A DNA stretch of 64,000 bases, from positions 451,755 to 515,754 of the forward strand of contig CBDBNN010000003.1 of the NCBI GenBank assembly GCA_965207895.1, read 5' to 3'. How positions within the stretch are numbered: the stretch's first letter is position 1; every line of letters starts with the position of its first letter. Of the stretch, positions 12,917 to 36,020 are shown one piece after another. The notes beneath the pieces are model-generated. The model was not told the DNA's origin. It ran no database searches and saw only the letters and a list, made by a program, of their open reading frames with translations. This DNA is from Dehalococcoidia bacterium. GTDB taxonomy: Bacteria > Chloroflexota > Dehalococcoidia > UBA6926. Position numbers and translations under genes: made by a program.

Positions 12917-12946
12917 GCGAAGCGGGATATAGAGTGGCGTCGCGGT

Positions 12947-14563
12947 CAGTCGGAGTTTGGCGATGCGATACGCGGCGTTTGAGTCTCTTGTTTGGCAATC
13001 GACACTACATCCTCGGTCGGGATGGCCAAGGTCAGTTCGACGTTGTTGCTCCCGTCGATGGTGGCCCCGTCCAGGAGCAGCCCCAGCGCCTCCTTGCGCT
13101 CCTCGTCGGTCAGGTCGTCAAGCCTGCCGCCGAGCCGGTGTGCCCACTCGACGATGTGCTCGCCCAGCGCCCGCTTCTCCGCCTCGGCCATCTCCCTGGC
13201 TCGGTAGTCGTCCAGCTTCAGCCGGAGCGTCTCCAGCCGTTCAGTGATGAACTTGCGCTGGCGGTCGAGCTGCTTCTCGGTGATCTTCCCCGACACGTAG
13301 AGCCTTATGGCCCGGTCCTCCTCCAACTGCACCTTTTGCAACTCCCGCTCCGCAATGGCGATCTCCTCGACCAGCTCGCCGTTGTCCGCCCGCGAGTCCA
13401 TGGCCTCGATGCCGGCGACGATGACGCCGGGGTTCTCCAGCACCTTCTTGACCTCGCCCCAGACAAGCGCCTCAAGCCGCTCGGCCCTGATGTTGGGACG
13501 CTCCCGGCATTGCACGCCCTCATTCTCCATTCCGTAGCACCGGTAGTAGCGGCGGGGGGTGTCCAGGTCGTAGATGTAAGCCTTGCCCTTTCGCCTGGAG
13601 GTCTGGCGTCTCGTCCCACGGCAGCCCATGAGGTACCCGCACTCGGCGCACCTGACCAGGTGCTGCAAGAGATAGAAGAGCTTGGTGTTGCGGCCCGAAC
13701 GGGTCAGACGCTTCTTCTTGGTCTCCTGCGCCAGGTCCCATATCTCCTCGTCCACCACCGGGGGGAAGGGCACCTCGACCCACTCGTCCTCGGGTCGGTC
13801 GTACCGCCTCATCCCGTTCTCGGTGGCGACGTGGCGGCGCTTGCCGAAATACCAGGTGCCCTTGTATGCCTCGGTGCGTAGGATGCGGGTGACTATGGCG
13901 TCGTACCAGGGACCGACGGCCCTGGGCGTGGGGACGCCCTCGGCATTCAACTGCTTGGCGATGGCCGGAGCGCCCATGTCTTCGCGGACGTACATGCGGA
14001 AGACGCGGCGTACGACCTCGGCCTCCTTCTCCACGATCTCCGGCCTGCGGTTCTCGCTGAGTTCGTAGCCGTAGGGGACGTTGTTGACAGGGATGCGGCC
14101 CTGCTTGGCCGAGCCCCGCTTGCCCATCGAGGCCCTCTCCCGGAAGTTGTCCAGCTCGATCTTGCCGATGGCCGCCATCAGGCCGAAGGTCTTCATGTCG
14201 ATGGCGTCAAGGACAGCTTCCAGTTCTATCTGGTACGCCTCGACGACCTCCATGAGAGCGGCTGCGGGGTACATGCCCCGGCTGAGCCGGTCGGACTTCC
14301 AGCAGACGATGGTGTCGAAACGTCCCTGGCGGGCGTCGGCCAGCATCCGCTGGAACTCCGGGCGGTTCTTGGACCATCCTCTGCCCACCTCCTGGTAGCG
14401 CGCGGTAATGGTCAGTCCCCTGCGCTCGCAGTGGGCCTCCATGTCGCTGATCTGCTCGGAGATGGAGGTCTTGTCCTCCGTGTCCTGGCTCTTGTCCGAG
14501 ACGCGGGCGTAGATGGCCGCCCGTTTCGTTCCCGTCTGCCTATCGGTGGTACTCGTCGCCATG
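12947..14563 (-). CDS. large serine recombinase (phage-type serine integrase)
   Basis: N-terminal resolvase domain with catalytic AAIYARVSDKSQ, a recombinase domain, a Cys-rich zinc-ribbon region (CAECGYL...C...C) and a coiled-coil C-terminus. Start set to ATG MATSTTDRQ with AGGAGG 6 nt upstream. The longer track ORF is read-through. Confidence 0.9.
12991..13010. repeat. left copy of terminal imperfect inverted repeat (candidate att half-site)
   Basis: 16/20 match to the reverse complement of 31288-31307. Confidence 0.4.
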
Positions 14564-14590
14564 TCTGCCTCCTGTCGTGTCCCTGAAATA

Positions 14591-14622
14591 AAGAAGACCC
14601 GCCTCCTGTCGGGAGCGGGTCT
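14591..14622 (-). promoter_or_regulatory. stem-loop followed by a T-tract immediately upstream of the integrase RBS (terminator/attenuator-like)
   Basis: Minus strand reads gacccgctcccgacaggaggcgggtc then cttctttatttc, then the RBS and ATG of the integrase. Confidence 0.35.
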
Positions 14623-14900
14623 GCGAGTAGTACAATCACTTCGCATCACCTGTTCCCGCAGGTGGCGCCACGGCCCGGGGTGTTTGCAGCACCGCCGGGT
14701 CAACTTCTATCTGCCCTCCATTTTACCGCGCTGGGCTGGAGGGAGTCAAAACGCGTCACCGGTCGGTGCTGCCTCCATTTGAATTGCTGACGCCAATCCC
14801 AGATTACCGACTAGACGCCGGTGAACCATGTCAACGGTCTTGGTGGCAGGTATTTCAGCCGAGCCTAGGTGCCGCCAATGGGTTCGGCGGGAACCGTCAT

Positions 14901-15383: not shown

Positions 15384-16589
15384 TCACTCCTCCCGGTCGT
15401 TTCCCGAGAGTGCGCCTCGCAGCTCTATCGCCTGCCGCGTCCGGTCGAGTTCCGCGGCTAGGATCGTCTCCTCTGGCAGGGTGATGCGGTACTCCCCGGC
15501 CATGACGTTGTTGGGCAGGCCGTCGAGGGCGTACCGCGCCAACGCCTCGTCCTTCTCGGAGCAGAGGATGAGTCCCACGGGCGGGTTCTCGCCCTCTCGA
15601 ACCCAGTGCTCCCGCGCGTAGTTCAGGTAGAGGTGCATCTGTCCGGCGTCGGCGTGGGTGAACGCCCCGATCTTCAGGTCGATGACCACGAGACACCGCA
15701 GACCACGGTGGTAGAAGAGCAGGTCCACCCTGTACCACCTGTTGCCGATGCGCAGGCGCCTCTGCCTGCCCATGAAGCAGAAGTCGTCCCCCAGCTCCAT
15801 GAGAAAGGTCTCCAGGTGGCGGATGAGCGCGTCTTCAAGATCGCTCTCGGAGTACTCGTCCTTGAGGCCGAGGAACTCCAGGACGAAGGGGTCCTTGATC
15901 TGCTCCTGGGGCAGCACGGCGTCTTCGGCATTGGGCTTCCGTCCCGACGTGAGCATGGCAGCCTTGTTCTTGGACAGGGCGGTGCGCTCGTAGAACTGGG
16001 AGGCGATCTGTCGGTCTAGCTGACGGACCGACCACCCTCCCCTCAGCGCCTCCGTCTCGTAGAACTCGCGGGCCTGCTCGTCCCTGACCGACAGCAGCCT
16101 CACGTAGGCCGACCAGGGCAACGGGAAGGCTGACAGCAGGTCTTCGAAGCCTACGCCGTCCGATGCGGTCATGAATTCTCCCGACGCCGTCGAGAGAATC
16201 CTCTGTCGATGGGATGAAGCCGATTTTCCCGACACTGTCGGGAGAATCCGGTCAGACGGGAACGAGAGGTAGAAGAGACGCATCTTGTAGATGCCCTGGA
16301 GGGAGAAGCCCCGACCGAACCTTCCGGTCAGGTCCTCAGCCAGTCTCTCGATGAGCGCCGCCCCGTACTCGGCCCGCTCCTCTCCCGACTGCTCGAACTC
16401 GACGATGCGACGTCCTATCAGCCAGTACGCGGCGGTCATGGCGGCGTTCACCGACCGAGCGGCAGAGTCTCTGGCCGCGTCGATGATTCTCGACACGTCT
16501 CCGAAGACAGCCTCGTACGGGGCGTCGTGACTGAGGGTTGAACGCCTCAGTGATGGCTGATTGCGGTTGGGGGACATCTCGGATGGCAT
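15384..16589 (-). CDS. DUF1016 (YhcG/RhuM-like) PDDEXK-fold nuclease family protein
   Basis: C-terminal block RVDLLFYHRGLRCLVVIDLKIGAFTHADAGQMHLYLNY matches the restriction-endonuclease-like core of DUF1016 proteins (D...D/E-x-K arrangement: DLLFY ... IDLK). Confidence 0.75.
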   Translation of the reverse strand: MPSEMSPNRNQPSLRRSTLSHDAPYEAVFGDVSRIIDAARDSAARSVNAAMTAAYWLIGRRIVEFEQSGEERAEYGAALIERLAEDLTGRFGRGFSLQGIYKMRLFYLSFPSDRILPTVSGKSASSHRQRILSTASGEFMTASDGVGFEDLLSAFPLPWSAYVRLLSVRDEQAREFYETEALRGGWSVRQLDRQIASQFYERTALSKNKAAMLTSGRKPNAEDAVLPQEQIKDPFVLEFLGLKDEYSESDLEDALIRHLETFLMELGDDFCFMGRQRRLRIGNRWYRVDLLFYHRGLRCLVVIDLKIGAFTHADAGQMHLYLNYAREHWVREGENPPVGLILCSEKDEALARYALDGLPNNVMAGEYRITLPEETILAAELDRTRQAIELRGALSGNDREE

Positions 16590-16813
16590 CAGGCTTCCTC
16601 CTCCAAGTGGTTGTCCACTTGGACGTCCGGGAGCGCGTCCTTCTCGGACTCCGCTTGCCCGTCGCCGGCCGAGGGCCTGAGCAGCAGGGTGAAGAGACGG
16701 AGCAGCCGGTCCTCGGCGTCGGGTGCGGGCCTGGAGATGACCCTCACCTCCCCAAACTCCGAGAAGTCCTCTTCGGGCATCCGTCGCACTTTCGGTCTCC
16801 TCTTGTCGTTCAT
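16589..16813 (-). CDS. small ORF (73 aa, MNDKRRPKVRRMPEEDF...) translationally coupled to the DUF1016 nuclease
   Basis: Its TGA stop overlaps the ATG of the nuclease (TGATG). A diverged paralogous copy at about 18310-18095 lacks a stop, so that copy is decayed. Substitutions between the copies are enriched at third codon positions in this frame. Confidence 0.3.
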   Translation of the reverse strand: MNDKRRPKVRRMPEEDFSEFGEVRVISRPAPDAEDRLLRLFTLLLRPSAGDGQAESEKDALPDVQVDNHLEEEA

Positions 16814-17060
16814 CGTTCTCTTCGCCGGGCTCTCGTGAGCCCGCACCGGGCTGTCAATGTCGGCGGATCGCAGCCCTCGCCAGAGAGTGTGAACAACTCG
16901 AACGCCGAAAAAGACCTCACGCGTGGTGGCGCCACGGAAGGTCGCCAACGAACAAGCCTCTTCGCGCAGTATTGGGGGTGTACAGGAAATGGAGTTTGGT
17001 GACGAAGTGGCCTGAGTCGTGATTTCGTAGCTGAATCAGGGGCAAATCGCCCTCTACAGG
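16596..17060. repeat. copy A of a diverged ~450-bp duplication
   Basis: Aligns by eye to 18096-18560 at roughly 70-80% identity. Both copies end in gtga(t/g)ttcgtagctgaatcagg ... ctctacagg. Confidence 0.6.
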
Positions 17061-18095
17061 AGGTGGTCGGCGAGCAATCTGTTGAAAGGGTGGAGTTCGG
17101 TCGGCAATGACAAAAGCAGGCTTGAGGTGGGGGTGCATGACGCGGCCCAAATCGGCGGCCCGATGACAAAAGCGGCCAAAAGATGCGCTTGAGGTGGGGG
17201 TGCGTTACACCGGGCGAGACATCGCAAGAAACGCGGACCTGGTGGAAGGCAAAGCTGAAACGAGTTTGCGGGGAAGCAGGAAACTGCCATAGAGACGACC
17301 CAACACGGCCTCTAGGACAGCAAAGACCTGGAGCACATGTACCCCATGAGGCCCGGTCAGCTGGCACCACGCGGCGCTTTACGACACGCAGAGAGCGCGG
17401 GGCAGAAGCGAGGTTGCGTCCAGGGTGTGGCGGGCGCTCACGCAGAGGTGGTTGTGGCGGTAGTTGTGGAGCAATACGTTGCCCAAGGTCGCGCTGGAGC
17501 AATATCCGGGGTGGGGGCACGCATGGGGTCTTCTTGGTCTCGCAGATCGGTGATAATGACCTCACTGTTTGGCTTTCTCCAAGGTTTCCGACCACAGAAA
17601 CCTGGGTGCGTGATCCCTGTTGCACGGGCTTCGCCCAAGAGGGAATGCTGGCGATGCGGAGTTTGACGTTGGTCCTCCGCAACCAGCGCGGGCCGGATCG
17701 ACGGAGTTGACGCAGGGGCCTCCGTTTTCGGTCCAGTCCAGCGGGTTGGAGTTTGACGTTGGTCCTCCACTCGAAGGACATCTGCCTGACGTTCGGCGTT
17801 GATCGCTCCCTCCGTTGGGCACCGGTCTGACGGCTGGGGTTGATCGCCTCGCAGTCTGACCAGGGGGACGACGTGTTAGCGCATCGTCCCCGGCAAACTG
17901 GCCAAAGTGCGCCTGTCGCTTTGGCCAGTTCAGCACGTCTGCGGGATGGCTGGAACGCAGCCGCACCGCAGCTTCCGCACGCAGTTGATGGGGTGCGGTC
18001 CTGGCTGAGGGTTGACCGCCTCGCCGGAGACAGATGACGTTCGGATGCCAATGCTAAGTTGGAATTGACCCACCCCGATAGCGGGCGCATTGGGC

Positions 18096-18560
18096 TTCTG
18101 CCTCCAGGTGGTTGTCCACGAGTCGGTGATCCGAGGGCGGGTCCTTCTGGGACTTCCGCCTGCCTCTCCTCGTCCGTGGGCCTGAGCGGCAGGATGAAGA
18201 GGCGGCGCAGCCGGCCCTCGGCGTCGGGGGCAAGCCTGGAGATGACCCTGACCACGCCGCATTCGGAGAATCCCTCCTCGTGTATCCGTTGTCCGCTCCG
18301 TCTGCTCCTGTCGTTCATCACTCTCTTCACCGGGCTCGCGTGAGCCCCAAAAGGGCTATCAATGTCGGTCTGAATGCCATTGAGTCTGGGGAGCCGAGGG
18401 GCGAAAAAACACGGTCCGTGAGGGGGGCGCTCGCGGGATGCTCCCTCACGAGGTCTCCATCCCAAATGGCCGGATGTGATGTACTACCCGTGTACAAGGA
18501 AATGCGCCGGTTGCATAAATGCAAGTCGGTGGTGAGTTCGTAGCTGAATCAGGTTGGAGT
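18096..18560. repeat. copy B of the diverged ~450-bp duplication
   Basis: See copy A. Confidence 0.6.
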
Positions 18561-18775
18561 GGAGGGGTGTGGGGCCGTTGTTGCGAGCACTTCGAGATAA
18601 GGGCGGGTTCACCCGATTTGGGCGGAAGTTGCAGAAATGCAAGTCGGAAAAGCGGAACAGCGGAGCGCATCGCTGCTAAATCGGAGCGAGCGATTTGGGG
18701 AACGAGGCCTAAACCGGGCCGTGATGGCCTCTACAGGACGCCCCTATCGGACATGAACATGAGGAGGTTTGACGC

Positions 18776-19705
18776 ATGAACGAGGCAGAGTTGAACGGCA
18801 CGCGGGTTGAGGAGACCCAGGATGGCGGGAACCAGGACACCGACGTGTTGGACGATGAAACCCTGACGAGCGAAGTCGGGGACGGTGACGACGCGGACAA
18901 GGAGCGGATGCGGCGGCACAGGTTGAGGGGGTTCCTGCGGGAGCTGGTGCGGGAGGAGGGCCGGATGGAGGCTGCGGAACTACTGGGCGTTGCCTACCGC
19001 ACGCTGGTCAAGGCCGAGGAGACCGGCGAGATCACGGGACGCATGGGCGACGCCATCGAACGGCTGTCGAGCGCGGGCGACAGCCCGGAGGTGAAGCGGC
19101 TCAGGGAGTCGGTCGGAATGGTCGAGGAACGCATGGCCGCGTTGGAATCCGGCATGGGGGCGCTGGGGAAGGAGCTCCGGGACGGACTGGACAAGTTGCG
19201 CATTGCGGCGGCCGGCAAGTCCGATGCCGAGGGCGGCGGCGAGGAAGGGACCCAAGCGGAGGACGCGGGTGAGAAGAAGGCGGGCCGGTCGGAGACCGGG
19301 GCCGCACCTCCGGTGGCGGGCCTGCGCCCCAAAAAGCCCTTCAGGGAGCGGCGCAAGGAGCCCGAGGTGGTCACGGTGAAGCCTGCCGACGACGACCGGG
19401 AGGTCTACGGCAAAGCCTGGCCGCTCATCGAGGAGTGGCGCAGCCTGCGGACAGGTCACCCCAATGAAGGCAAGAGCCTGTCGTGGCTCACGACGCATGA
19501 GCGGCTGCTCGTGCTGGAACTGGCGATGCTGGAGGAGCACGGGCTGACCCTGCCGCCGGAGAAGCAGGCGCTCAGGGGGTTCGGGCGCAGTGGCCAGACC
19601 ACCTGGCGGTGGACGGCGCTGGCGGACACGAGGAAGTCCCTGGCAAGGCGGGAACTGCTGCGCTGGGTGCGCCGGGTCCTCACCGTGGGACTGTGGCGGG
19701 AGTAG
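18776..19705 (+). CDS. hypothetical DNA-binding protein with putative HTH and coiled-coil/charged regions
   Basis: Strong RBS GAGGAGG before the ATG. Segment AAELLGVAYRTLVKAEETGEI resembles an HTH. Flanked on both sides by related repeats (gctgctaaa ... cggagcgag(c/t)gatt). Confidence 0.55.
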   Translation: MNEAELNGTRVEETQDGGNQDTDVLDDETLTSEVGDGDDADKERMRRHRLRGFLRELVREEGRMEAAELLGVAYRTLVKAEETGEITGRMGDAIERLSSAGDSPEVKRLRESVGMVEERMAALESGMGALGKELRDGLDKLRIAAAGKSDAEGGGEEGTQAEDAGEKKAGRSETGAAPPVAGLRPKKPFRERRKEPEVVTVKPADDDREVYGKAWPLIEEWRSLRTGHPNEGKSLSWLTTHERLLVLELAMLEEHGLTLPPEKQALRGFGRSGQTTWRWTALADTRKSLARRELLRWVRRVLTVGLWRE

Positions 19706-19931
19706 GCCCCGGAGCCTGCCTTCGGGGCCGGTTTTCGGCGGCTGCTAAAGCGCAGCGACATGGGCGCTAACTCGGAGCGAGTGATTCACGCTGGGTTGAC
19801 CTGAAACCCCTTCCGAAGCCTTCCATTGCCTGTCCGACCAGGCGATAATTGACGCAGTTTCTGGCTTTTCCAGCGTTTCGTGCCGAGAAACCTGGAGGGT
19901 TCCCGTCCCCCGAATCCGGGACCGGCTGCAT

Positions 19932-20080
19932 AGGATCGAGCCTCGCTCTCCGAACAGCCGCCCAGGGGTCAGACCGGAAGGATTGAGCCTCGCTCTCCCG
20001 ATGGTCTCCCCGGAGGGACAAACGCCTTCCCGCTGCGTGAGCCGGTCGAGGGGTCGAGCCGTTGCTCCTCCGATGCCGTC
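19932..20080. repeat. three imperfect ~30-bp direct repeats (iteron-like) upstream of the 4xHTH gene
   Basis: ggatcgagcctcgctctccgaacagccgcc / ggattgagcctcgctctcccgatggtctcc / gggtcgagccgttgctcctccgatgccgtc at about 50-70 bp spacing. Confidence 0.5.
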
Positions 20081-20749
20081 TCGGAAGTCGGGACACCACC
20101 GTAGCGAGTACGGTGCAGACTCTCGCCGAGGTGCGCCCAGCGTCCCGGCCATTCCTCATGCCTGCGGCGCAAACGTCACGCGGTTGGGTCGCAGCTTCAA
20201 CGCACGCCGTCCTGCTATGACTCCGCATGGCTGCGTCGCTCTCACGGCACCGGTCTCGGACCGATCTGCAGGCCGGACGCATTTCCTCTCACAGCAGCTC
20301 CCCGGTCCGCATCCCCGTGATATGACCCTGGACGAGCTGCGTTTTTCTCACCCCACTTCGTCCCCGCGTCCGGCATCCGACCGTGGGCGAAGTGCGTCTT
20401 GCGTCAAACGAACCCATCACACACACAACCCGCGCCCCGGATGCCGCGCGGGTCAGCAACATCAATATCAAGGAGGTGCACATGCACGTTGAGTAGTTAG
20501 TAGGCGAGACCAAGGGCGCCGGAGTCGGCATTGACGGCTTCACGCCCCCGCCTCTCGCACACAAGGCCCCCATAACAGTTGGCGAGCAAAGGGCCGCTTC
20601 TTCCTCCGCGCGAGGAAGGGTGGCCCTTCTCTTTGCCAGCAACGAACCCACGGAGACGGTCCCGGCTGCCGGGACATCAATTCGAGCGGGACTGTCTCCG
20701 CCCCACGGGGTGGCGGCCGTCCCGCTTCTTCATTGAAAGGAGAAGCGAC

Positions 20750-21907
20750 ATGACGACGGCAACCACACCAACGACCAATCGGCAGAACACGACGGAGACA
20801 ACGACGGATGCGGCAACGCCCGTTGAGGCCATGGGCAAGCCTGAGAGCGAACTCAGGGCGGTGGCCAGGAAGAAGGGCCTCACCATGAGGGAGCTTGCGG
20901 CCCTGATGGGCGTGAGCGCCAGCCACCTCTCCCAGGTCGGCACGGGCAAGAAGCCCTGGACCCCCAACCTGCGGGAGAAGGCGATGGCTGTGCTGGGCGA
21001 GGTCCCAGGACAGGGCTTCGTCTACCGACAGCGCGGCGAGGTCAATTCGGAGAGCAGCTACATCCGGGAGCAGGCACGGACGATGGGCTACACCATGCGG
21101 GAACTCTCCGACCGGTCGGGGGTGAGCTACTCCTACCTCACCCAGGTGGCCCGTGGCCGCCGCAACATGGGCGTCAAGGTGCAGGCCAGCATCGAATCGG
21201 CTCTTGGGGTGGCGGCCAGGGTCGCTCCGGCCAAGCTCGCCAACCGTCAGGGCGAGGTGGTCGAAGGGACGGACAGCAGCTTCATCCGGGAGACCGCCCG
21301 CGCCCTCGGCATCACCATGCGGGAGCTGGCCGAGAAGGTGGGCGTGTCCGCCGGGTACCTGTCCCAGGTGTCACGCGGGCACAGGAGCATGGGCGTGAAG
21401 CTTCAGGCTCGGGTCGAGGCTGTGCTTGGAGGGCGTGCGAAGGTCGCTTCCGCCCAGTGCCCCGACATCGACCGCCAGTTCATCTGGGAGCAGATGGACG
21501 CGCTAAACGTCAGCCAGAACGAGGTCGCGAGGCGGGCGGGCATCAGCTCCGGTCACCTCTCCCAGATCATGAACGGCCAGCGCAGCCCGTCCGCCGTGGT
21601 CATCAGAAAGCTGCACGGGGCGCTGTTCCGGCGCAGCCAAGACCCGCAGCGGGTGATGCCCGTTGCCATGAAGGTCCTGGGCTGGAAGAAGGGTGAGCGC
21701 AGCGGGATGGTGGTGCACGGCGCCCGTGGCCGGGACGGCACTGCCAGGGGCGGCGCGGTGCGCGTCGGCGGCCGGGTGCCCTGGGGCGCGAAGGTGGAGT
21801 ACGCCTTCCGCGCCGGGTACGACGGCAGGGGCAAGGTGTCGGTGGACCACGTGGTGGCGCCGAGCTGCTCCGCCCTGTTGATGCGGCCGGAGCCTACGAC
21901 CGCTTAA
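20750..21907 (+). CDS. protein with four tandem XRE-type helix-turn-helix domains
   Basis: Four repeats of the pattern (L/Y/I)TMRELAxxxGVSxxYLSQVxRGxR(S/N)M. RBS AAAGGAGAAG before the ATG at 20750. Gly/Arg-rich C-terminus. Confidence 0.75.
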   Translation: MTTATTPTTNRQNTTETTTDAATPVEAMGKPESELRAVARKKGLTMRELAALMGVSASHLSQVGTGKKPWTPNLREKAMAVLGEVPGQGFVYRQRGEVNSESSYIREQARTMGYTMRELSDRSGVSYSYLTQVARGRRNMGVKVQASIESALGVAARVAPAKLANRQGEVVEGTDSSFIRETARALGITMRELAEKVGVSAGYLSQVSRGHRSMGVKLQARVEAVLGGRAKVASAQCPDIDRQFIWEQMDALNVSQNEVARRAGISSGHLSQIMNGQRSPSAVVIRKLHGALFRRSQDPQRVMPVAMKVLGWKKGERSGMVVHGARGRDGTARGGAVRVGGRVPWGAKVEYAFRAGYDGRGKVSVDHVVAPSCSALLMRPEPTTA

Positions 21908-21915
21908 GCGCAAAG

Positions 21916-21954
21916 AGAGGGAGGCCATCGGAAGTTGATGGTCTCCCTCTCTAC
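21916..21954. terminator. strong hairpin (16-bp stem, one mismatch) followed by a T-run
   Basis: agagagggaggccatc ggaagtt gatggtctccctctct, then cgctttttgg. Sits between the convergent 4xHTH gene and the R-M operon end. Confidence 0.6.
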
Positions 21955-22274
21955 CGGGCACATATATGTCGCTTTTTGGCGTTGCCGAAATGTCTACGCT
22001 CGTATCAGACGTGTACTGAGAGACAATTGGCGCCAGTTGGCTGCGGCAATAAGCAGTCTCCCGAAAAGCGGCATCACCTGCCGGTTCAACATCCGCTCGT
22101 CTCTAGCTTCGGTAGCCCCTTGTTCTCTCCTTAGACCAGCGCCAGGATAGCCTCAATCTGTCCCACATCTATCTGAGAGGGTACAGCGATATTCTTCTGC
22201 GGCCCTGAGGCGGGCTGAACGGCGGGCGAGGCTTGGCTCACAGTCGGAGTCCCGCTCATTTGTCCGTGCAGCCA

Positions 22275-23003
22275 TCACAGGGGCAGCGACTCTCCGCTCT
22301 CCCGAAGATGCTGGCGACGCCGCTGCGCGTCCGGCATCACCGAAGCAATGAGTGTCCAGAACTCCGGTGAGTGGTCCCGGTGGGTCAGGTGCGCCAATTC
22401 GTGGACGACGACGTATTCCATCAGCGCCGGTTTCACCATCATGGCGCGCCAGTTGAAGCGCAGCGTCCCGTCGGGCGCGCAACTTCCCCAACGCTGACGC
22501 TGGTCGCGCACCAGCACACGAATCCTATCTCCATGTCCAAGCCGCGGCGTCCACCGTTCGACGACCTCTTCAAGTCTCTCTTGGGCGCGCGAGCGGTACC
22601 AGCGCACTACTGCTCGGCGGATCGACTCGTAGCGTTCATCGCCGCTCAGTCCCTTCGGGGCGGCGACCCGGAACCTCCAGTGATCGAAGCGGACTTCCGC
22701 CCTGCGCACGTCTGCGTCCTCCACAACCATGCGGACGTTGCGGCCCAGATAGGGTAGCGTCTCCCCGCTCACGAAGCGCTTGGGGGCGGTTTCCAGCATC
22801 CGGTCCGAGGCGTGACTCAGTATCCAGCCAGCCCGCTTCCGCACAATGGCGCGCAATTCGTTGACGGGCGTGGTCGTCGGCGCGACGACCTGCACCCCGC
22901 CGCCATCCACCGTGATCTGGACGGTCTTCCTGCGCCGACTGCTGCGTCGCACCTCGTAGTCGATGCTGGTATCGCCGAAGCGTACACGGCCCTCCTCGGT
23001 CAC
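22275..23003 (-). CDS. DUF45/YgjP-like zinc metallopeptidase (WLM/SprT-like)
   Basis: HELAHLTHRDHSPEFW zinc-binding motif. GTG start overlaps the hsdR stop (GTGA). This family is commonly linked to Type I R-M loci. Confidence 0.8.
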   Translation of the reverse strand: MTEEGRVRFGDTSIDYEVRRSSRRRKTVQITVDGGGVQVVAPTTTPVNELRAIVRKRAGWILSHASDRMLETAPKRFVSGETLPYLGRNVRMVVEDADVRRAEVRFDHWRFRVAAPKGLSGDERYESIRRAVVRWYRSRAQERLEEVVERWTPRLGHGDRIRVLVRDQRQRWGSCAPDGTLRFNWRAMMVKPALMEYVVVHELAHLTHRDHSPEFWTLIASVMPDAQRRRQHLRESGESLPL

Positions 23004-26000
23004 TGCCCGCTCCGGCGGCTGGCAAGCTCGACTATCCGGCTGGCCAACTCCTCCAGCTGGTCTTCGGTGTAGTCGCCCTTGGGTCTGAGTTCGCGCTTGA
23101 TGTCCCGGCGCATCAGCCGCCTGACATCCTCGTTCACATGCCAATCCACGACCCTGCTGCGCTGGGCGACGACCGACTCGATCCTCAGGGCAACGCTCCT
23201 GGCCTCCTCATCTATCTGAACGTGGTAAACGCCCTGCTCCTCTGCGATGTGCCGGGGAGGAACCTCTCCATTCTCCGGGCGTCTTTCCAGCAGCGCGTAG
23301 ATGGCGAAGGAGGTGGGTGAGAGACCGAACTCCGCCGCGATGTCGGCCTCGCTTCGCATCCGTCCCCGCACCTCAGCGTAGCGCCGGCACGCCTCGGCAG
23401 CGTCTATCACCCTGTTGCGCAGATCGTCGATGATGCGGGCCAGCTGTTCGGACAAGCGCTCGTAGAATGCGGGATTGTCTCCCAGACTCTCGTGGATCTG
23501 GGAGCGGATGGCGTGCTCCATGATGGACGCCCGCGCCTCGTCGTGGGGCAGGGCGGCGATCTTCTGGTCGAAGTCCCGGTCGAGGATGGACACCGGCCGC
23601 ATCATCTCCCGCACCTGGGCGCTGATGCGCTCGTCCACCAGCTTCTTCACCTTGGCCCCAATCTCCGTCCAGTCGATGTCGGCGTCCTCGCGAAGGAATT
23701 GGGCGCGCACGTAGGCGCGTATCTCCGTGAGCCGCGCCAGCCGGTCCGTGTAGTCCAGCGCGCGCGGGTCCGGCAGGAATCGGTCCATGAGACGGGAGAA
23801 ACCCCGGTAGTCGGCGTTGAACCGCTCGAATACGTGAGCCTTGAGGTTGCCCTCGGTGCTGGCGTCGGGCGCGAAGACGCTGACGCACGCCCAGGTGTCG
23901 CTCAGGTCCCGGCCCTTGAAGTGTGACTCGGCCTGGACGGCCGCGGCCTCGACGACCGACGCCGGGTCCTCGTCCATCTCCTGCATCGTGCCCTGCACAT
24001 CCGACCAGTCGAATGTTGAAAGAACGTCTTCGAGGTCCCGAGATACGCCGTGGTAGTCCACGACCAAGCCGTGGGTCTTTTCGGTCTCCGCCCCGTCCTT
24101 TCTATGCGAGAACCGGCGGTTGACCCTCGCAACGGCCTGAAGCAGCCCGTGCTCCCGCAGCGCTCTATCCAGGTAGAGCACCTGCTCCACGGGCGCGTCG
24201 AACCCGGTCAGCAGCATGTCCACCACGACCAGCACCTCCGGCTCGCCCTCCGGATCGACGAAGGCGCTTTCGACCTGTCCCTGGTCGAGTTCGCGCGCCG
24301 CCTTGAACTCCGGCCCGTCGTTTGGGGCTGTGGTGATGATGGGATAGGCGCTGAGGCCGAAATCCTTCAGTCGGCTGGCGTACCGGAGGGCGGCTACCCG
24401 GCTGGGCGCAACCACCTGGGCCTTGAACCCGTTGGGGCGAATCTTCGCCTTGAAATGCTCGGCGATGTCTAGGGCGATCATCTCGATGCGTCGCTCCGCC
24501 TCAGCCACCGTCTCTTTGTTGGCGTAGCGTCGGCGAATCTGCGCTTGGACAGCGGGCGGCTCGTCGCCGAACATGGCATCGTAGAGCTTGTCCAGGGTCT
24601 CCGGCCCCTCGATGGCAAGCTCGGGCAGGCGCGCCTCGTAGAAGATGGGCACCGTCGCGCCGTCGGCCACCGACTGGGGGATGGTGTAGGTGTCGATGAG
24701 CGAGCCAAAGCGCCCTATGGTGTTGCGCTTGAAGCCCTTCTCTATGGGCGTTCCGGTGAACCCGATGAGCGCCGCGTTGGGCAGCGCTTTGGAGAGCCGT
24801 CCCCCGAGGATGCCGTACTGCGTGCGGTGCGCCTCGTCCACCATGACGATGACGTTCTCCGAGGCGTTGAGCACGTCAAGCTCGCCCTCGGGGGTCGTCA
24901 GCGCCTCCTCGAACTTCTGGATGGTCGTCATGATCGTGCGGCCCGCGCCCGTGGTGAGCAGACGACGCAGGTCCCGGCTGGTCGCCGCCCGCTCCGGCGC
25001 AGGGAAGCCGCAACGCTCGAAGGTGCCGGTGATCTGCCGGTCCAGTTGCGTGCGGTCGGTCACCACGACAATCGTGGGATTGCCCAGACGAGGCTCCCGA
25101 CGCAGCCTCGTCGCCAACCACAGCATGGTCAGGGACTTGCCCGAACCCTGCGTGTGCCAGACCACGCCGCCCCGTTCCTCCGGCTTCAGGCCGGTGAGCA
25201 ATCGCTCCAACCCAGCGCGAACCGTGCGGTACTGCTGGTAGCGTGGCAGCTTCTTAACCACACGTCCCCGCTCCGGCTCATAGACCACATAGTCGCGGAG
25301 GATGTCCAGCAGGGTTGCGGGAGGCAGCAGGCCGACGATGAGCTGGGCCTGCCCCTGGGGTTCGACCCCGTACCTCTGCCTCACGTCGTCCTCGGAATGG
25401 CTCCCAAGCCATTTCCACTCGAAGTAGGCGTTCTCCGGCGCGCCGATGGAGGCGTACGCGGCAGCGGCCCCGCAGTGTGCGACGCACAGCAGGTTGTAAT
25501 GGAAGAGCTCGGGAGCGCCGCTCCCGCGCCACTCCGGCCCTGCCTCCTGGTAACGTCGCAACTGCCGCACCGCGTTGGTCTTCCACACGTCCAACAAGGA
25601 AGGCGACTTCGCCTCCATCACCACTAGGGGGATGCCGTTGACGAACAGCACGATGTCGGGAATGACCATGCGTTCGTCGTCCTCGGCGCCGCCTCTCTCG
25701 TTGGCGCGGCGGACGCGGAACTGGGTGGTGACGACGTACTCGTTGAGTCCGCCTTCAGGATGGTCGAAGTCGAAGAAACGAACGATCCGCGAATCCCTGC
25801 CCTGCGGCCCGTCAACGGTCAAGGGCTTGCCATAGGTCAGATACTCGTGGACCGCCTGGTTGCGGCCCATGCCGGTGGCGTCGATGTGCTCAAGGTCGAA
25901 GATGACCCGCCCGGCCTGGGCCTCGGTCATCCATTCGTTCAGACGAAGCAGGGCCGCTCTCAGGCGCCCCTTCAAGAGCACCTCCCGCTCGTCGCCTCGC

Positions 26001-26131
26001 TCCGCCGCCAGCGCCTCGCGCGGCACGTAGGTCCAACCCAGCTTCTCCAGCAAGCGCCTCGCTGGGTCCTCGGCGTGGTTGAATTCGTTGAGCTTGGAGG
26101 GTGTGGTCATAGGACTCCTAGCTACCCTCAT
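23000..26131 (-). CDS. hsdR: Type I restriction enzyme R subunit
   Basis: N-terminal nuclease motif (PDIVLFVNGIPLVVMEAK), SF2 helicase motifs (WHTQGSGKSLTM; VIVMVDEAHRTQ) and a long C-terminal domain. The start may be the internal MTTPSKL (about 26110). Confidence 0.95.
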   Translation of the reverse strand: MRVARSPMTTPSKLNEFNHAEDPARRLLEKLGWTYVPREALAAERGDEREVLLKGRLRAALLRLNEWMTEAQAGRVIFDLEHIDATGMGRNQAVHEYLTYGKPLTVDGPQGRDSRIVRFFDFDHPEGGLNEYVVTTQFRVRRANERGGAEDDERMVIPDIVLFVNGIPLVVMEAKSPSLLDVWKTNAVRQLRRYQEAGPEWRGSGAPELFHYNLLCVAHCGAAAAYASIGAPENAYFEWKWLGSHSEDDVRQRYGVEPQGQAQLIVGLLPPATLLDILRDYVVYEPERGRVVKKLPRYQQYRTVRAGLERLLTGLKPEERGGVVWHTQGSGKSLTMLWLATRLRREPRLGNPTIVVVTDRTQLDRQITGTFERCGFPAPERAATSRDLRRLLTTGAGRTIMTTIQKFEEALTTPEGELDVLNASENVIVMVDEAHRTQYGILGGRLSKALPNAALIGFTGTPIEKGFKRNTIGRFGSLIDTYTIPQSVADGATVPIFYEARLPELAIEGPETLDKLYDAMFGDEPPAVQAQIRRRYANKETVAEAERRIEMIALDIAEHFKAKIRPNGFKAQVVAPSRVAALRYASRLKDFGLSAYPIITTAPNDGPEFKAARELDQGQVESAFVDPEGEPEVLVVVDMLLTGFDAPVEQVLYLDRALREHGLLQAVARVNRRFSHRKDGAETEKTHGLVVDYHGVSRDLEDVLSTFDWSDVQGTMQEMDEDPASVVEAAAVQAESHFKGRDLSDTWACVSVFAPDASTEGNLKAHVFERFNADYRGFSRLMDRFLPDPRALDYTDRLARLTEIRAYVRAQFLREDADIDWTEIGAKVKKLVDERISAQVREMMRPVSILDRDFDQKIAALPHDEARASIMEHAIRSQIHESLGDNPAFYERLSEQLARIIDDLRNRVIDAAEACRRYAEVRGRMRSEADIAAEFGLSPTSFAIYALLERRPENGEVPPRHIAEEQGVYHVQIDEEARSVALRIESVVAQRSRVVDWHVNEDVRRLMRRDIKRELRPKGDYTEDQLEELASRIVELASRRSGQ

Positions 26132-27086
26132 CGAAAGTAGTTGAACTCCAATGACTGGCTACCCTAAGCACGTAATCGGCACAGATTATGGCATTCAGGG
26201 CTTGCCTGCTTGTATTGTATGCAGCAAAACCGTGACTAGCCGCATGGCGATTCGGTGTCGGACTGTGCCTGATTTCTTCCAGGTTCTCGCTCTCCACCCG
26301 AGCGTAGAGTTCGTGCATGATGTATTTGATGACGACCCACTCGTGGCGACCATCCCAGATCAAATTTCTAAACGGTGTATGACCTACTCGCTCCTGGATT
26401 TCTCCGTACTGCCCGCTCTTCGTTCCTTCGATACCGAGCAAGTCCTCACGAATCACTTTCTCGATTAGAGGCAATACTCCGTAACAGGCTGAGCGAAAAT
26501 AACCTAGCCTATAGACCTCCAACGCTTCACGGACCGCGCTCTTGTCTTCGTCATCTACTGAGTAATCCGATAAGCGCGTGGATATGTCTTCAACTATCTC
26601 GCTTGTACATTCACTGTAATACCGGTCTACGAGGTCGCTGAACGTGCTCTCGTCGTAACTTGAGTCGTCCAAGAACTGTGCAAACGGAACAGTTCTATAT
26701 GGGAGCCATCCGGTGGTTGTGCTTGCCTCTTCCATTCGTTGTTCAAATGCAAATGGATTGGGAAGCTTCAGCACGTCCAACGAGGGGAGCCAGGTGTTTG
26801 GCTGCAAGGTAATCTGGGTTATCTCTGATATGGCCCCCAATTGTTGTGTCAACAGGTGAGCCATAAGGGAAGTCATGCGACTCTGGTCAAGGATCGACTG
26901 TAGACCGCTCGTCATGTGTGCCAACGAGCTTTGCCATCTACCCAATTGCCCTTCCATGATACTGGCCTGAATCTTGAAGGAGTCATCCCACAGCTTGCTG
27001 AATGACGCTGTTATCTGATTCATATCGCTCATCACGTGACGCAGGTCCTCATGGGAGGTACCGCGAACATCATCTTCAGTGCTCAT
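26118..27086 (-). CDS. hypothetical protein on an AT-richer segment inside the R-M operon; possible HEPN-like (R-x4-H) protein
   Basis: Clean 322-codon ORF with 14-nt and 4-nt overlaps with neighbours. C-terminal NRHAASHG fits the Rx4-6H HEPN signature. Composition is clearly AT-richer than hsdS/hsdR. Confidence 0.6.
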   Translation of the reverse strand: MSTEDDVRGTSHEDLRHVMSDMNQITASFSKLWDDSFKIQASIMEGQLGRWQSSLAHMTSGLQSILDQSRMTSLMAHLLTQQLGAISEITQITLQPNTWLPSLDVLKLPNPFAFEQRMEEASTTTGWLPYRTVPFAQFLDDSSYDESTFSDLVDRYYSECTSEIVEDISTRLSDYSVDDEDKSAVREALEVYRLGYFRSACYGVLPLIEKVIREDLLGIEGTKSGQYGEIQERVGHTPFRNLIWDGRHEWVVIKYIMHELYARVESENLEEIRHSPTPNRHAASHGFAAYNTSRQALNAIICADYVLRVASHWSSTTFDEGS

Positions 27087-28351
27087 AGCTGCTTTGCCGC
27101 CGTCCTTCCATGCATACGAACGCGACCCGTCAGCAGCGCCTCTGACGCCGATCCCTTCAGTGCTTGCAGCCTTTCCCGCTCCTCGTGCCCCTGCTCAATG
27201 GCCGAGTCTACGCCAGTCAGCACTGAGGCGATGGTCTGCTGCTCTCGCAACGCCGGAAGTGGAATCGAAAGAGAGTTTGTAGCACCCAGCGTCAGGCCAA
27301 AGCGAGTGACTCCATTGGCGATGCGAGCAAACCGGCTTGCCGTCCGTGGAGACCCTAGTAGCTCAGCCAGATACGCGCCATCGGCTAGCTCCATGCGCGG
27401 TCGTGCCAATCCCAGGTGATAGCCACACAGGACTGTTGGCATATCCGCAGTCACATAGGCGGGAATCCCGATTTCATCTGGCGTTTCCGAGTCCTTCGTG
27501 AAGAGAACGTCGTTCTTCCGCAACGCCCATCGGTCACACTCAACCGGGCTAGCGGTCGCAGCCATAAAGCGCATTCCAGGTCGGATTCGGCGACTGTAGA
27601 AGACATCCGTGTAGTTGCAGAGTTCAACCGGAACCTCGCCGTCCACGGTTCTCTTATCGACGCTACTGAAAGCTACCTCCGTCACATCCCCCAGCCGTAC
27701 CACCTCCCAGTTCGCCGGTATCGTCCCGATGCCCGGCGCTTCCTTCCACTCTGTGTGCCAGCCGGGGACACCGCGGGTGAGGAGTTCGTGTAGTAGAGAG
27801 TCGCGCAGTTGCTCGGTGGCGGCGATGGCTGCATCCGTCCTCTCGATTGCTTCATCGATGCCGTCCAGCACGGCGGCGATGGCCCGCTGTTCGGGTAGTG
27901 GGGGGAGTAGGATGGGGAGATTGCGCAAGTGTGTCCAGGATGTTCTTGGCATCTTGGTCCCACCGACTCCACGCATCGCGTATTCATAGGTCTGGTCGCC
28001 ACGAAGCAAGTGACTGAGAAAGGAACTGTCTGCCTCGCTGCCACCGAATATGGCGAGGATGTCGGTCGAGCAAACGCCGTCAAACTGTGCTCGAATCACT
28101 TTTCTCAGGTTTGGACGAAGCTTCCCGTAAAGCGTGTCACCCTCTCGGAAGAGAGTCTTGTTGCTGATCGACTCTCCCGCTCTTCCGTACCCGTTCAAAG
28201 CCCCCTCAGCAATGATGTGTTCAAGGGCAATGTAAGGCCGGTGATCGTGTTTCGTGGGTTTGACTTGCTCCATGCGGAGATTCGCCACATCCCCCAACTG
28301 CACTACCTGCCAGCCGTCGGGTATCGTCCCATTGTCTCCTGAACGTCCCAT
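27083..28351 (-). CDS. hsdS: Type I restriction specificity subunit (two TRDs)
   Basis: Two target-recognition domains each followed by the conserved L-x-x-L-P-x-L-x-E-Q-x-x-I block (LPPLPEQRAIAAVL; LPALREQQTIASVL). Confidence 0.9.
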   Translation of the reverse strand: MGRSGDNGTIPDGWQVVQLGDVANLRMEQVKPTKHDHRPYIALEHIIAEGALNGYGRAGESISNKTLFREGDTLYGKLRPNLRKVIRAQFDGVCSTDILAIFGGSEADSSFLSHLLRGDQTYEYAMRGVGGTKMPRTSWTHLRNLPILLPPLPEQRAIAAVLDGIDEAIERTDAAIAATEQLRDSLLHELLTRGVPGWHTEWKEAPGIGTIPANWEVVRLGDVTEVAFSSVDKRTVDGEVPVELCNYTDVFYSRRIRPGMRFMAATASPVECDRWALRKNDVLFTKDSETPDEIGIPAYVTADMPTVLCGYHLGLARPRMELADGAYLAELLGSPRTASRFARIANGVTRFGLTLGATNSLSIPLPALREQQTIASVLTGVDSAIEQGHEERERLQALKGSASEALLTGRVRMHGRTAAKQL

Positions 28352-28359
28352 CGGTCTCT

Positions 28360-28710
28360 TCAGTTACCTTCGTCCGTGGGCGGGCGTATCTCGTGGATGG
28401 TCACCGGAAGTCCTGCCCGCTTAGCTTCCAGCCAGCGTTTGAAGGAACGCTGGCTTTCTCCGGAGGGCCATCCTCCCAACAGCATTTCCACGCTGATGTC
28501 CTCATCCAGGGCAGGCCAGTGGATGCCCTCGCCAGCGCCTATCAGCCGCCAGTTGTGGCGTTCCTCAGGCGTGGCGTGGATGAGCCTGGGATACCAGGAC
28601 AGTGGCACCGACACGGTCCGCCCGTCGGAGAGCTCTGCGGTCAGGGTATCGTCGGTCACCTCGACCGTCATGGCCTCCGGCACACTCACCTTAAGCGTTG
28701 AAACGTTCAT
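28360..28710 (-). CDS. DUF2442 family protein
   Basis: Size and sequence pattern of DUF2442. Overlaps the DUF4160 gene by 20 nt, the usual pairing. Confidence 0.65.
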   Translation of the reverse strand: MNVSTLKVSVPEAMTVEVTDDTLTAELSDGRTVSVPLSWYPRLIHATPEERHNWRLIGAGEGIHWPALDEDISVEMLLGGWPSGESQRSFKRWLEAKRAGLPVTIHEIRPPTDEGN

Positions 28711-28927
28711 TCCAAGCCTCCAGAAACGAATTCTGATTTTCCTCGACTATCTTCTCGATGCGGCGTATCTCATGCCGCCTCAATCCGCCTGTCTGTTGAA
28801 GCCTGACCGGCTCCAGCCAAAACTTGGCGATGCGGTCATCGCGTTCGACGTGAATGTGGGGAGGCTCTCCCCGGTCGCTCGCGTAGAAGAAGAACCGGTA
28901 CGGCCCCTCCCTCAGTATGACCGGCAT
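28691..28927 (-). CDS. DUF4160 family protein
   Basis: MPVILREGPYRFFFYASDRGEPPHIHVE is the hallmark N-terminus of DUF4160. Confidence 0.7.
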   Translation of the reverse strand: MPVILREGPYRFFFYASDRGEPPHIHVERDDRIAKFWLEPVRLQQTGGLRRHEIRRIEKIVEENQNSFLEAWNERFNA

Positions 28928-28942
28928 GGTCCACCAAGCCTC

Positions 28943-31890: not shown

Positions 31891-32012
31891 GATTATCTCC
31901 CCACGCTTGTCACATCTATTTTAACTGGTCCGCGCGTGCCCACCTAGTCTACGTGTCTGTAGGATCGGTATCGGCGAGGAATGTAGGTAACGTCACGGCA
32001 ATTGTGGAGCAG

Positions 32013-32291
32013 TTACTTGAGCTTTATGTGCTGAATCAATTCTAGGAATTTTGTGGCATCCTTTTCCCGCTCACTAAGGGTAGTCGTATGGATATAGAGA
32101 TCCGGCGAACGCTCAAGAAACCTCTCCATGAGCCGTCGCTTCTCGCTTTCGACTCGATTCAACTGAGAGGGTTCATATACTAGCAACAGGTCGATGTCGT
32201 TTGGGGAGTCGACGCGAAGGCCTGAACCAAACAAATATGCTTCACTGAAACAGTCGCTGATCAGCGAAGCGATAAAAGAGTAGTCTTGCAC
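32013..32291 (-). CDS. minimal nucleotidyltransferase (MNT, Pol-beta superfamily)
   Basis: hG[GS] and DxD signature LFGSGLRVDSPNDIDLLLVY. AT-rich segment. Confidence 0.75.
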   Translation of the reverse strand: MQDYSFIASLISDCFSEAYLFGSGLRVDSPNDIDLLLVYEPSQLNRVESEKRRLMERFLERSPDLYIHTTTLSEREKDATKFLELIQHIKLK

Positions 32292-32298
32292 CGTTCAT

Positions 32299-33474: not shown

Positions 33475-33530
33475 GCCCTTACTTCACCTCACAAAGCACG
33501 AGGGAAGATTGGTGAGCGTCTAGCTTTGTT

Positions 33531-34406: not shown

Positions 34407-34547
34407 TACTGATGTCTCCAGTTATCCCTAGCGGTATCCCGTTCAGACAGTATAGGGGATTGGGGGTGGGGGTGGGGGGGGATTCTGTTGGCACGCCCGT
34501 TGCCAAAAACGTTACGCTAGTAACGTTACGCAATAACCGCCACACTT

Positions 34548-35649: not shown

Positions 35650-35735
35650 GGTTTTCTCTTCAGGCCCCACTCTTCGTTCTATTCATACTCATGCGTACTT
35701 TGCTCTGCTGCTGCGTGGTACCTAGGGCACATGAT

Positions 35736-36020
35736 TCAGCTTATCCGAGCGCTGATTGATGAACGGGCGACAATTACACGTCTTGCAGCTAGCCTGACGT
35801 CGTCGGCTGCGTCCTTGAGCACTTTGATATCGCCAAGTGCGTAGTCATAGTCGCTGGCATCTGAGTCCATGTCAGCCACGCTCTCTTGCAGGAAGTTTTG
35901 CTGGCTTACGATAGCCTCTTCAAGCAGTTGGAGTGCCTTTTCAGCGGCGGTGGCGATGCCGTCCAGAAAAAACAGTTCGTGTAGCCCACTATGTTCGATA
36001 TCACTCATTTGGTACCTCAA
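35736..36020 (-). CDS. hypothetical small acidic protein
   Basis: ORF on the AT-rich islet. No family recognised. Confidence 0.3.
   Translation of the reverse strand: MRYQMSDIEHSGLHELFFLDGIATAAEKALQLLEEAIVSQQNFLQESVADMDSDASDYDYALGDIKVLKDAADDVRLAARRVIVARSSISARIS

Follow-up and report, generated by a model that had tools for sequence, protein, structure and literature searches.

What could a bacterium do with four DNA-binding heads on a single protein chain? This question is raised by a plus-strand gene at positions 20750-21907 of a 64,000-nucleotide stretch of DNA from a Dehalococcoidia bacterium (contig CBDBNN010000003.1; the whole stretch is hereafter called the window), the product of which carries four consecutive helix-turn-helix (HTH) domains of the XRE (Cro/C1) type and is referred to here as the multi-HTH protein. 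From the HTH domains and the element context, a regulatory role, already proposed in an earlier note on this DNA, emerges as the most economical reading. Specifically, we lean, with slightly better than even confidence, towards the multi-HTH protein being the resident DNA-binding regulator of a group of integrative conjugative elements, and of their secretion-less derivatives, in Dehalococcoidia. We favour this regulator because the protein has four HTH_3 domains, its recognition helices are conserved, its gene keeps a constant position in the element and a structured leader precedes the coding sequence.

The gene consists of 385 codons plus the stop codon, and its translation gives an intact open reading frame (ORF). 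A Shine-Dalgarno sequence, AAGGAG, is found at 20737-20742, 7 nt 5' of the ATG at 20750, and this ATG, rather than the TTG at 20579, was taken as the start because all homologues begin with MTTAT in the alignment. The exact protein is on record as P0001, under the name 'MAG: helix-turn-helix domain-containing protein [Chloroflexota bacterium]' (MAG, metagenome-assembled genome). A domain scan bore out the earlier proposal of four independent XRE-type HTH domains in one chain: Pfam HTH_3 (PF01381) matched the protein with a score of 98.7 bits (cut-off 23, E 1.9e-28), in four stretches, each of them significant separately, and HTH_31 likewise matched in four stretches. On these matches the 385-aa protein is a member of the XRE/Cro-C1 HTH_3 domain family. 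In addition, an AlphaFold2 model of the full-length protein, built on a family alignment of 29 sequences, shows four bundles of four helices each at residues 34-82, 104-152, 178-225 and 242-292, with a predicted local distance difference test (pLDDT) score of ~70-85, no fifth helix in any of the modules and low-confidence linkers between them. All four modules are thus modelled as lambda-repressor-like bundles with a helix 2-turn-helix 3 arrangement.

The chain starts with a Thr-rich, variable N-terminal tail (residues 1-31, 20750-20842), predicted to be disordered (pLDDT ~30). It is followed by module 1 (residues 32-86, 20843-21007), an HTH_3 stretch with helices at residues 34-41, 46-53, 57-64 and 72-82; by module 2 (residues 101-155, 21050-21214), which is the module type duplicated in relatives with 5-7 modules; by module 3 (residues 175-229, 21272-21436), seen both as an HTH_3 stretch and as an AlphaFold2 bundle; and by module 4 (residues 241-295, 21470-21634), which is divergent and contains the best Pfam stretch, at residues 249-292. 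Identity is 58% between modules 2 and 3, 41-46% between module 1 and either of these, and 20-35% between module 4 and the others. Of the literal motif that the earlier note ascribed to every module, modules 2 and 3 carry the whole and module 1 a part, while module 4 fits it only loosely. At the DNA level, the four modules of the window gene form a 62-nt repeat family of 65-76% identity, and Tandem Repeats Finder detected nothing in the gene; the module duplication in the window gene is therefore old.

A protein search with the window protein returned more than 100 relatives of ~385 aa with 75-88% identity, the records of which are named merely 'helix-turn-helix domain-containing protein'. A genome scan, with one genome per species, gave 341 encoding loci, 80 of which were fetched and listed. 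All 80 listed loci derive from Dehalococcoidia or Chloroflexota MAGs. Among them, at least 9 copies occur in one MAG (CBDBLV...), 6 in another and 3-4 in several, and many of the loci lie at contig ends, like repeated elements. No relative of the multi-HTH protein was found among the IMG/VR viral contigs or among the PLSDB plasmids. This lineage-confined, multi-copy distribution is as expected for a mobile-element gene. The loci nearest to the window, L003 and L004, show 97% identity to it over 10.8 kb, which indicates that the window comes from a related strain.

The number of modules is variable within the family. Proteins with three (P0112, 311 aa), five (P0110 and others, 445 aa), six (P0003, 518 aa) and seven modules (P0002, 591 aa) accompany the four-module form of the window protein (P0001, 385 aa), which has the commonest count. 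As seen in the alignment, the length variants keep the first module, the last module and the C-terminal domain constant, and it is the internal module type that is repeated. The extra modules correspond, at the DNA level, to in-frame tandem copies of 219 bp: L086 has 3.9 copies of this unit with 93% identity, and L002 has 5.0 copies with 82% identity, together with a 438-bp double unit of 94% identity. Since some module copies are as much as 93-94% identical, the module number is changing on a recent time scale. The four-fold architecture had been considered unusual; once homologues were searched it proved common in its own lineage, where four is simply the most frequent number between three and seven, and tandem-HTH chains are also known from published work (Cbp1 with three domains, CasPRIB2 with four and Wmk with two).

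The conservation pattern was analysed on 144 four-module relatives, among which many copies share single genomes. Mean column entropy is lowest in the recognition helices (0.27-0.61 bits) and in the C-terminal domain (0.49 bits), and highest in the N-terminal tail (1.27 bits) and in the linkers (0.9-1.7 bits); the recognition helix of module 4, with 0.27 bits, is the best conserved of the four. Conserved recognition helices and a conserved C-terminal domain, together with variable linkers, fit a conserved nucleic-acid target contacted through flexible tethers and a conserved domain for interactions.

The C-terminal domain of the window protein spans residues ~301-372 (21650-21865, plus strand) and belongs to a conserved type of ~75-85 residues, predicted to be beta-rich, with the motif ERVMP..KVLGWKKGERSGMVV...GGRVPWGA.VEYA.R.GYDG.G.VSV.HVV and with 4-5 beta strands predicted in AlphaFold2 models. 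The earlier note had described this part as a Gly/Arg-rich tail; the region does exist, but it is a strongly conserved domain, as its column entropy indicates. The domain gave no Pfam or PHROG match, and Foldseek against the PDB returned no match below E 0.9; as judged from these three resources, it appears to be unrelated to described domains. Of 1.84 billion cluster representatives searched with this domain by itself, only 121 clusters (at 50% identity) matched, mostly fragments, and HTH modules precede the domain in every sufficiently long match, apart from a few apparently chimeric or miscalled genes. Most likely, the C-terminal domain mediates self-association or the binding of a partner or a signal.

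To which kind of DNA the gene belongs was deduced from the neighbourhoods of loci with called genes, combined with ORF clustering of 83 loci. The backbone has a constant order: minus-strand type IV secretion genes, then a plus-strand gene for a 267-309-aa protein, ~0.5-1 kb of non-coding DNA, optionally two small genes, the conserved leader, the multi-HTH gene, a hairpin and finally variable genes. The type IV secretion set near the multi-HTH gene comprises TraC/VirB4, a pilin, TrbL and a PrgI-like gene, and secretion genes flank the multi-HTH gene in 38 loci. In 26 loci a large serine recombinase gene is found 5-7 kb upstream, either replacing the secretion genes or beyond them; the two occur together in one 20-kb locus only.

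The window represents the recombinase type of island, with no secretion genes anywhere in its 64 kb. The large serine recombinase, a likely integrase, is encoded on the minus strand at 12946-14703 and has Resolvase, Recombinase and Zn_ribbon_recom domains; a YhcG/DUF1016 nuclease gene lies at 15384-16589. The upstream partner gene of 309 aa maps to 18776-19705 on the plus strand. It belongs to a cluster present in 34 loci (cluster 5), shares 38-42% identity with its positional counterparts in L001 (275 aa) and L002 (267 aa), and has no Pfam or PHROG match. Immediately 3' of the stop codon of the multi-HTH gene, a plus-strand hairpin with a 16-bp stem, 94% complementary, occupies 21914-21952, and DNA similarity between copies stops at ~21957, ~50 bp past the stop codon, where the alignments of 7 loci end. 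The multi-HTH gene therefore appears to mark the junction between backbone and cargo.

Beyond this junction, the window carries a minus-strand type I restriction-modification system at 22275-30469 (YgjP-like, HsdR, an uncharacterised gene, HsdS and HsdM). At other loci the downstream genes encode Calx-beta and fibronectin-type-3 proteins of 1,600-3,000 aa, ResIII helicases, a hybrid histidine kinase, a group II intron reverse transcriptase and transposases. Restriction-modification genes related to those of the window are found downstream of the multi-HTH gene amid other upstream contexts, for instance in L006, L018 and L031. Because several of these downstream genes recur beside the multi-HTH gene in unrelated upstream contexts, they are cargo and not host flank. 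The assignment of the gene to a mobile element, already suggested before, is upheld by its constant position beside secretion genes or a recombinase gene and by the variable cargo on its 3' side. The multi-HTH gene is the hallmark of a multi-copy family of putative conjugative and integrative elements in Dehalococcoidia.

The ~110 nt before the ATG (20641-20749, plus strand) form a conserved structured leader, which is shared by distant loci and exists in two versions. In the window leader, a 13-bp stem (20651-20664/20687-20700) and a terminator-like hairpin (20685-20726), which has CTTCTTCATT on its 3' side, exclude each other as competing structures, and the Shine-Dalgarno sequence lies within a third hairpin (20723-20747). 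The stability of the fold exceeds that of shuffled sequences (z = -3.75), and one stem position is changed on both sides in two loci and forms a G-U pair in the window. In the second version, CTTCTTCTT comes after a classical G+C-rich hairpin, in which pairing is kept at the top of the stem despite sequence variation, as read from the alignment. An Rfam scan of 16500-22100 gave no match.

Some bacterial group II introns target terminator stem-loops. In L086, an ORF-less group II intron (5313-5990), matched by the Rfam models RF02001, RF01998 and RF00029 (D1-D4 and domain V/VI models, E 5e-28 to 4e-06), lies in sense orientation directly after the terminator-like hairpin of the leader. The insertion site and the orientation of this intron therefore support both the leader hairpin and sense transcription. 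Taken together, the leader may act as a post-initiation gate on the expression of the multi-HTH gene. Further upstream, at 20482-20496, a mini-ORF of four codons (ATG CAC GTT GAG TAG) follows a strong AAGGAGG; it is conserved in ~15 related loci, with nine codons in L086, and may encode a leader peptide ~250 nt 5' of the multi-HTH start.

The region upstream of the multi-HTH gene contains, on the same strand, tandem units of two related types (41-50 nt), here called alpha and beta. Alpha units repeat every 40-42 nt with the consensus GGAGTTGATCGCTTCATCCGCTGGACACCGGTCTGGCGGTT, and all 118 of them, in 57 sequences, are on the plus strand; in 1.79 Mb of sequence, 132 plus-strand and 11 minus-strand occurrences of their core, GTTGATCGC, were counted. 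Each alpha unit comprises two imperfect dyads, GGAG-N7-CTCC and CGCTGGAC-N4-GTCTGGCG, so that 41 bp hold four half-sites. The beta type, GG(A/G)T(C/T)GAGC-loop-GCTC(T/C)CC, recurs with a spacing of ~47-51 nt in 30 of 74 loci, and 58 of the 74 loci with sufficient flank contain the alpha or the beta type at least twice. The type of array goes with the whole upstream module, and the second leader version always occurs with alpha arrays. A co-variation of array type and protein clade was considered as a signal of co-evolution and set aside, being inseparable from linkage in an upstream module that is inherited together.

In the window, an alpha array of five units of 41-47 nt maps to 17658-17875 (plus strand), with the core GTTGATCGC in the last two units, at 17798 and 17839, whereas degenerate beta units are located at 19932-20070 (plus strand; GGAT(C/T)GAGCCTCGCTCTCC at 19932 and 19979, GGGTCGAGCC at 20051). 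The upstream module has a partial second copy (16586-17975), which encloses the alpha array. Two copies of a 280-bp segment, 78% identical, lie 1.5 kb apart at 16586-16863 and 18087-18368, and the island carries two consecutive partial copies of the upstream regulatory module. A 551-aa ORF on the minus strand (16810-18465) was treated as spurious, as it overlies the plus-strand promoter-like element, the array and the duplicated segment and has no Pfam match.

A promoter-like -10 box, GATAAT, is present on the plus strand at 19844-19849, with a second copy at 17552-17557, and a conserved stem-loop, CCAGCGTTTC...GAAACCTGG (19870-19895, plus strand), stands between GATAAT and the beta repeats. 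When eight upstream sequences were compared by eye, an A+T-rich hexamer was seen to precede each array (GATAAT in the window, AATAAT/TAATAAT elsewhere) and to be followed by the stem-loop. A strict sigma-70 scan did not call the GATAAT element. The hexamer and the stem-loop could represent a promoter and the 5' end of a long leader. Two further elements of the upstream region are perfect or near-perfect 14-bp palindromes, GTTGCA(T/G)AAATGCAAGTCGG, at 18511-18524 and 18629-18642, 118 bp apart and just 5' of the 309-aa gene, which look like the operator of a dimeric regulator. Moreover, a second repeat of 98-103 nt, in 2-2.7 copies, occurs between the 41-nt array and the leader in many loci with the second leader version (L063 9395-9623; L083 4130-4333; L086 4800-5083).

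How would a resident regulator of this kind work? Four XRE (Cro/C1) HTH domains on one chain, joined by variable linkers of 15-25 residues, would bind DNA and control the transcription of element or cargo genes. The covalent chain would replace the usual non-covalent dimer or tetramer, so that a monomer could contact four half-sites over roughly 40 bp, while the C-terminal beta domain would provide self-association or bind a partner or a signal. Expression of the protein would in turn be gated by the leader, through the alternative between the terminator-like hairpin and the long hairpin combined with the hairpin over the ribosome-binding site. A more specific version, to which we assign a low probability, is that of a natural modular DNA reader, in which each XRE module would read one sub-site and the 219-bp duplications would lengthen or retune the recognised site.

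Several observations weigh against a regulator that reads the DNA upstream of its own gene, or leave parts of this reading less firm. When alpha units were scored as two hairpins, 81.6% of the cells paired, versus 40-53% in slid controls; 23% of all alpha-hairpin cells are G-U, that is, mismatches on the other strand or asymmetries of a duplex site, and the stem substitutions run from C-G through U-G to U-A. The alpha repeats appear to resemble plus-strand hairpins more than protein operators. In addition, the repeat period (41-46 nt) and the number of copies (3.5-6) are the same for proteins with four, five, six and seven modules, and a match between module number and repeat geometry, looked for in loci with 3-7 modules, is left unsupported by this constancy. 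No short DNA motif is common to all loci. The TTGCATAAATGCAA palindromes (TTGCA-N4-TGCAA, at 18511 and 18629) were rejected as a family operator, being present in only 9 of 88 sequences, and so were the four GTCCCG hexamers of the window leader as four half-sites, since they are missing from the second leader version and alternative RNA pairings fit better. The idea that the four heads read the upstream repeats, put forward when the gene was first noticed, thus finds no support in these comparisons, given the strand-specific G-U hairpins, a period independent of module number and the scarcity of the palindromes. As regards the C-terminal domain, the full-length AlphaFold2 model has pLDDT <40 in this part and offers no confident model; a domain-only model from a more diverse alignment reached a pLDDT of 57.8 and a predicted template modelling score of 0.43, which is still low confidence. 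A fold assignment was attempted and failed at these confidence values and with no Pfam, PHROG or Foldseek match. Finally, the host organisms of the family are known from MAGs alone.

The same repeats could be read in another way, with the multi-HTH protein as an architectural protein that coats the array, lying along the 41-50-bp repeats 5' of its own gene. The four half-sites of each unit would then serve the four heads, the C-terminal domain would link neighbouring molecules, and either a patch of Cbp1-like chromatin or a ParR/parC-type complex, similar to those on centromeres or iterons, would result. Partition loci in which repeats lie 5' of the gene for the binding protein are established, same-strand repeats do lie upstream of the multi-HTH gene in the 58 loci mentioned above, and a 41-bp unit would match four heads that each span one helical turn. 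Tandem HTH domains that sit on tandem repeats have a precedent in Cbp1 (PMC10883916). We nonetheless hold this coating role to be improbable, albeit the least so of the alternatives, because period and copy number do not change with five, six or seven modules, because G-U pairs at 23% on the plus strand only and G-U substitution intermediates denote a single-stranded hairpin and not a double-stranded operator, and because the association of array type with the whole upstream module contains no co-evolution signal beyond linkage. Moreover, neither a ParA, ParM or TubZ-type NTPase nor a replication initiator was found among the scanned neighbours; for the same lack, a partition protein of the ParR, TubR or ParB type that acts with a partner NTPase was discarded.

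Strand-specific hairpins adjoining a type IV secretion operon, as found in 38 loci together with the gene, would also suit a conjugation accessory factor, either a relaxosome component at the origin of transfer or an establishment protein made early in, or transferred to, the recipient, the arrays being single-stranded-DNA signals of the leading region. This seems distinctly unlikely to us, as the 6-10-kb flanks yielded neither a relaxase nor a coupling protein, recombinase-only islands without secretion genes, the window included, conserve gene and arrays to the same degree, and known relaxosome accessory proteins are mostly ribbon-helix-helix proteins. Least probable of all, with very little in its favour in our estimate, is a regulator dedicated to the adjacent cargo, for example a controller (C) protein belonging to the type I restriction-modification system, or an antitoxin of the HigA type. 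The C proteins of restriction systems are indeed XRE-type, a restriction-modification system adjoins the gene in the window and in a few other loci, and the NCBIfam HigA model (TIGR02607) scores 68.5 bits against a cut-off of 47.7. This score is, however, summed over four stretches of a 385-aa protein, while the model describes a single domain of ~100 aa, so that it reflects the additive effect of four generic HTH matches. Furthermore, the same gene is accompanied by different cargo from locus to locus, its immediate neighbours include no ORF of toxin size, ~1 kb upstream contains no credible ORF and the downstream gene is convergent; HigA was accordingly rejected.

An immunity repressor, the other role suggested for the protein in the earlier note, is not specifically supported either. 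A CI/ImmR-type repressor was discarded, as there is no S24 autopeptidase (the C-terminal domain has no Pfam match) and no adjacent ImmA-type (M78) partner. A role as ImmA was considered for the YgjP-like hydrolase encoded nearby and dismissed, since its gene belongs to the restriction-modification cargo and is found in <4 of 83 loci. In addition, the recognition helices show no diversification into immunity groups: they are among the most conserved parts of the protein, including in the many co-resident copies from single genomes.

With the resident regulator as the preferred reading, the multi-HTH protein can be compared to known systems. Phages and conjugative elements are most commonly switched by XRE-type regulators, which are understood as dimers on palindromes. 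The dimeric XRE/Cro-C1 repressors (434, lambda CI, SinR, ICEBs1 ImmR, ClgR) share with the multi-HTH protein the HTH_3 domain and the setting in the regulatory region of a mobile element; their chains contain a single HTH each and contact two or four half-sites through non-covalent oligomerisation, whereas here 3-7 HTH domains are covalently linked. A PDB sequence search retrieved single-domain relatives of the ClgR type only. Covalently linked HTHs achieve extended asymmetric recognition without dimerisation in engineered single-chain 434 repressors and in eukaryotic Myb repeats, POU and Paired proteins; the principle is the same as in the multi-HTH chain, but these proteins are artificial or eukaryotic and no homology is implied.

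Among natural prokaryotic chains, Wmk of the Wolbachia prophage WO also has tandem XRE-type HTHs on one chain in a mobile element, but only two of them and with unrelated biology; its NCBIfam model gives 22.1 bits with the window protein, far under the cut-off of 300. The archaeal Cbp1 of Sulfolobales has three tandem HTH domains, which arose by internal duplication and are aligned 5' to 3' along the CRISPR repeat (PMC10883916). Cbp1 and the multi-HTH protein have in common tandem HTH domains on a single chain and tandem DNA repeats near the gene. Unlike Cbp1, with its three modules, short linkers and known target, the multi-HTH family has repeats that look like single-strand hairpins, and any binding to them is putative. 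CasPRIB2 of Listeria prophages has four consecutive HTHs, which are autoregulatory according to the authors' suggestion (bioRxiv 10.64898/2026.02.23.707548). These HTHs are an appendage to the CapR and AP2 domains, dispensable for the known activity, and CasPRIB2 is phage-borne and from Bacillota, while the multi-HTH family was not found in the IMG/VR viral contigs. As far as tested, Cbp1, CasPRIB2 and Wmk are unrelated to the multi-HTH family in sequence or context. A literature search found no paper on the multi-HTH family or on conjugative elements of Dehalococcoidia. What is new here is the variable number of modules, the C-terminal domain and an undescribed element family; the XRE domain and tandem HTH chains were already known.

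Other features of the islands deserve mention. The YgjP-like gene at 22275-23144 (minus strand) encodes a metal-dependent hydrolase with a HEAH motif and lies convergently to the multi-HTH gene, with an overlap at the 5' end of hsdR; L003 and L004 share this gene order, and the gene travels with the restriction-modification cargo, clustering with genes of <4 of the 83 loci. The window is 93-97% identical to L003 and L004 on either side of 26110-28281, with no alignment reported across this interval, which contains most of hsdS and an uncharacterised 322-aa gene. An exchange of restriction specificity among closely related islands is suggested by this pattern. In many loci of the secretion type, two small conserved genes separate the array from the multi-HTH gene; they encode proteins of ~164-186 aa and 159-168 aa (L001 6361-6921 and 7053-7544; L083 4402-4896 and 5031-5510). 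One of them has a Cys-rich motif and a C-terminal hydrophobic helix; neither gene occurs in the window or matches a Pfam or PHROG entry. Elsewhere in the window, a 508-aa ankyrin-repeat protein and an IS1595-family transposase are encoded on the plus strand, at 43964-45490 and 59493-60431, respectively, and two stretches have a low G+C content (0.50-0.55), at 4001-6000 and 32001-36000; one holds a UvrD-like helicase gene and the other HNH, ThiF and DUF433 genes adjoining a tRNA-Arg gene. The low-G+C stretches, the ankyrin gene and the IS1595 transposase may be further acquired DNA.

In conclusion, no gap in current understanding hinges on the multi-HTH family, the function of which we infer. 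As a natural family with 3-7 XRE domains per chain and recent changes of copy number, it makes the evolution of multivalent asymmetric recognition accessible to study. If the modular reading of DNA were true, the family would be a bacterial counterpart of zinc-finger and Myb arrays, composed of the DNA-binding domain that is most common in prokaryotes and linked to a highly proliferative family of conjugative elements in Dehalococcoidia that had not been described before. The multi-HTH gene is, in addition, a handy marker for an element family that reaches at least 9 copies per genome in uncultured Dehalococcoidia. These elements carry restriction systems, giant adhesin-like proteins and other cargo, and they probably shape the genome plasticity of the lineage.

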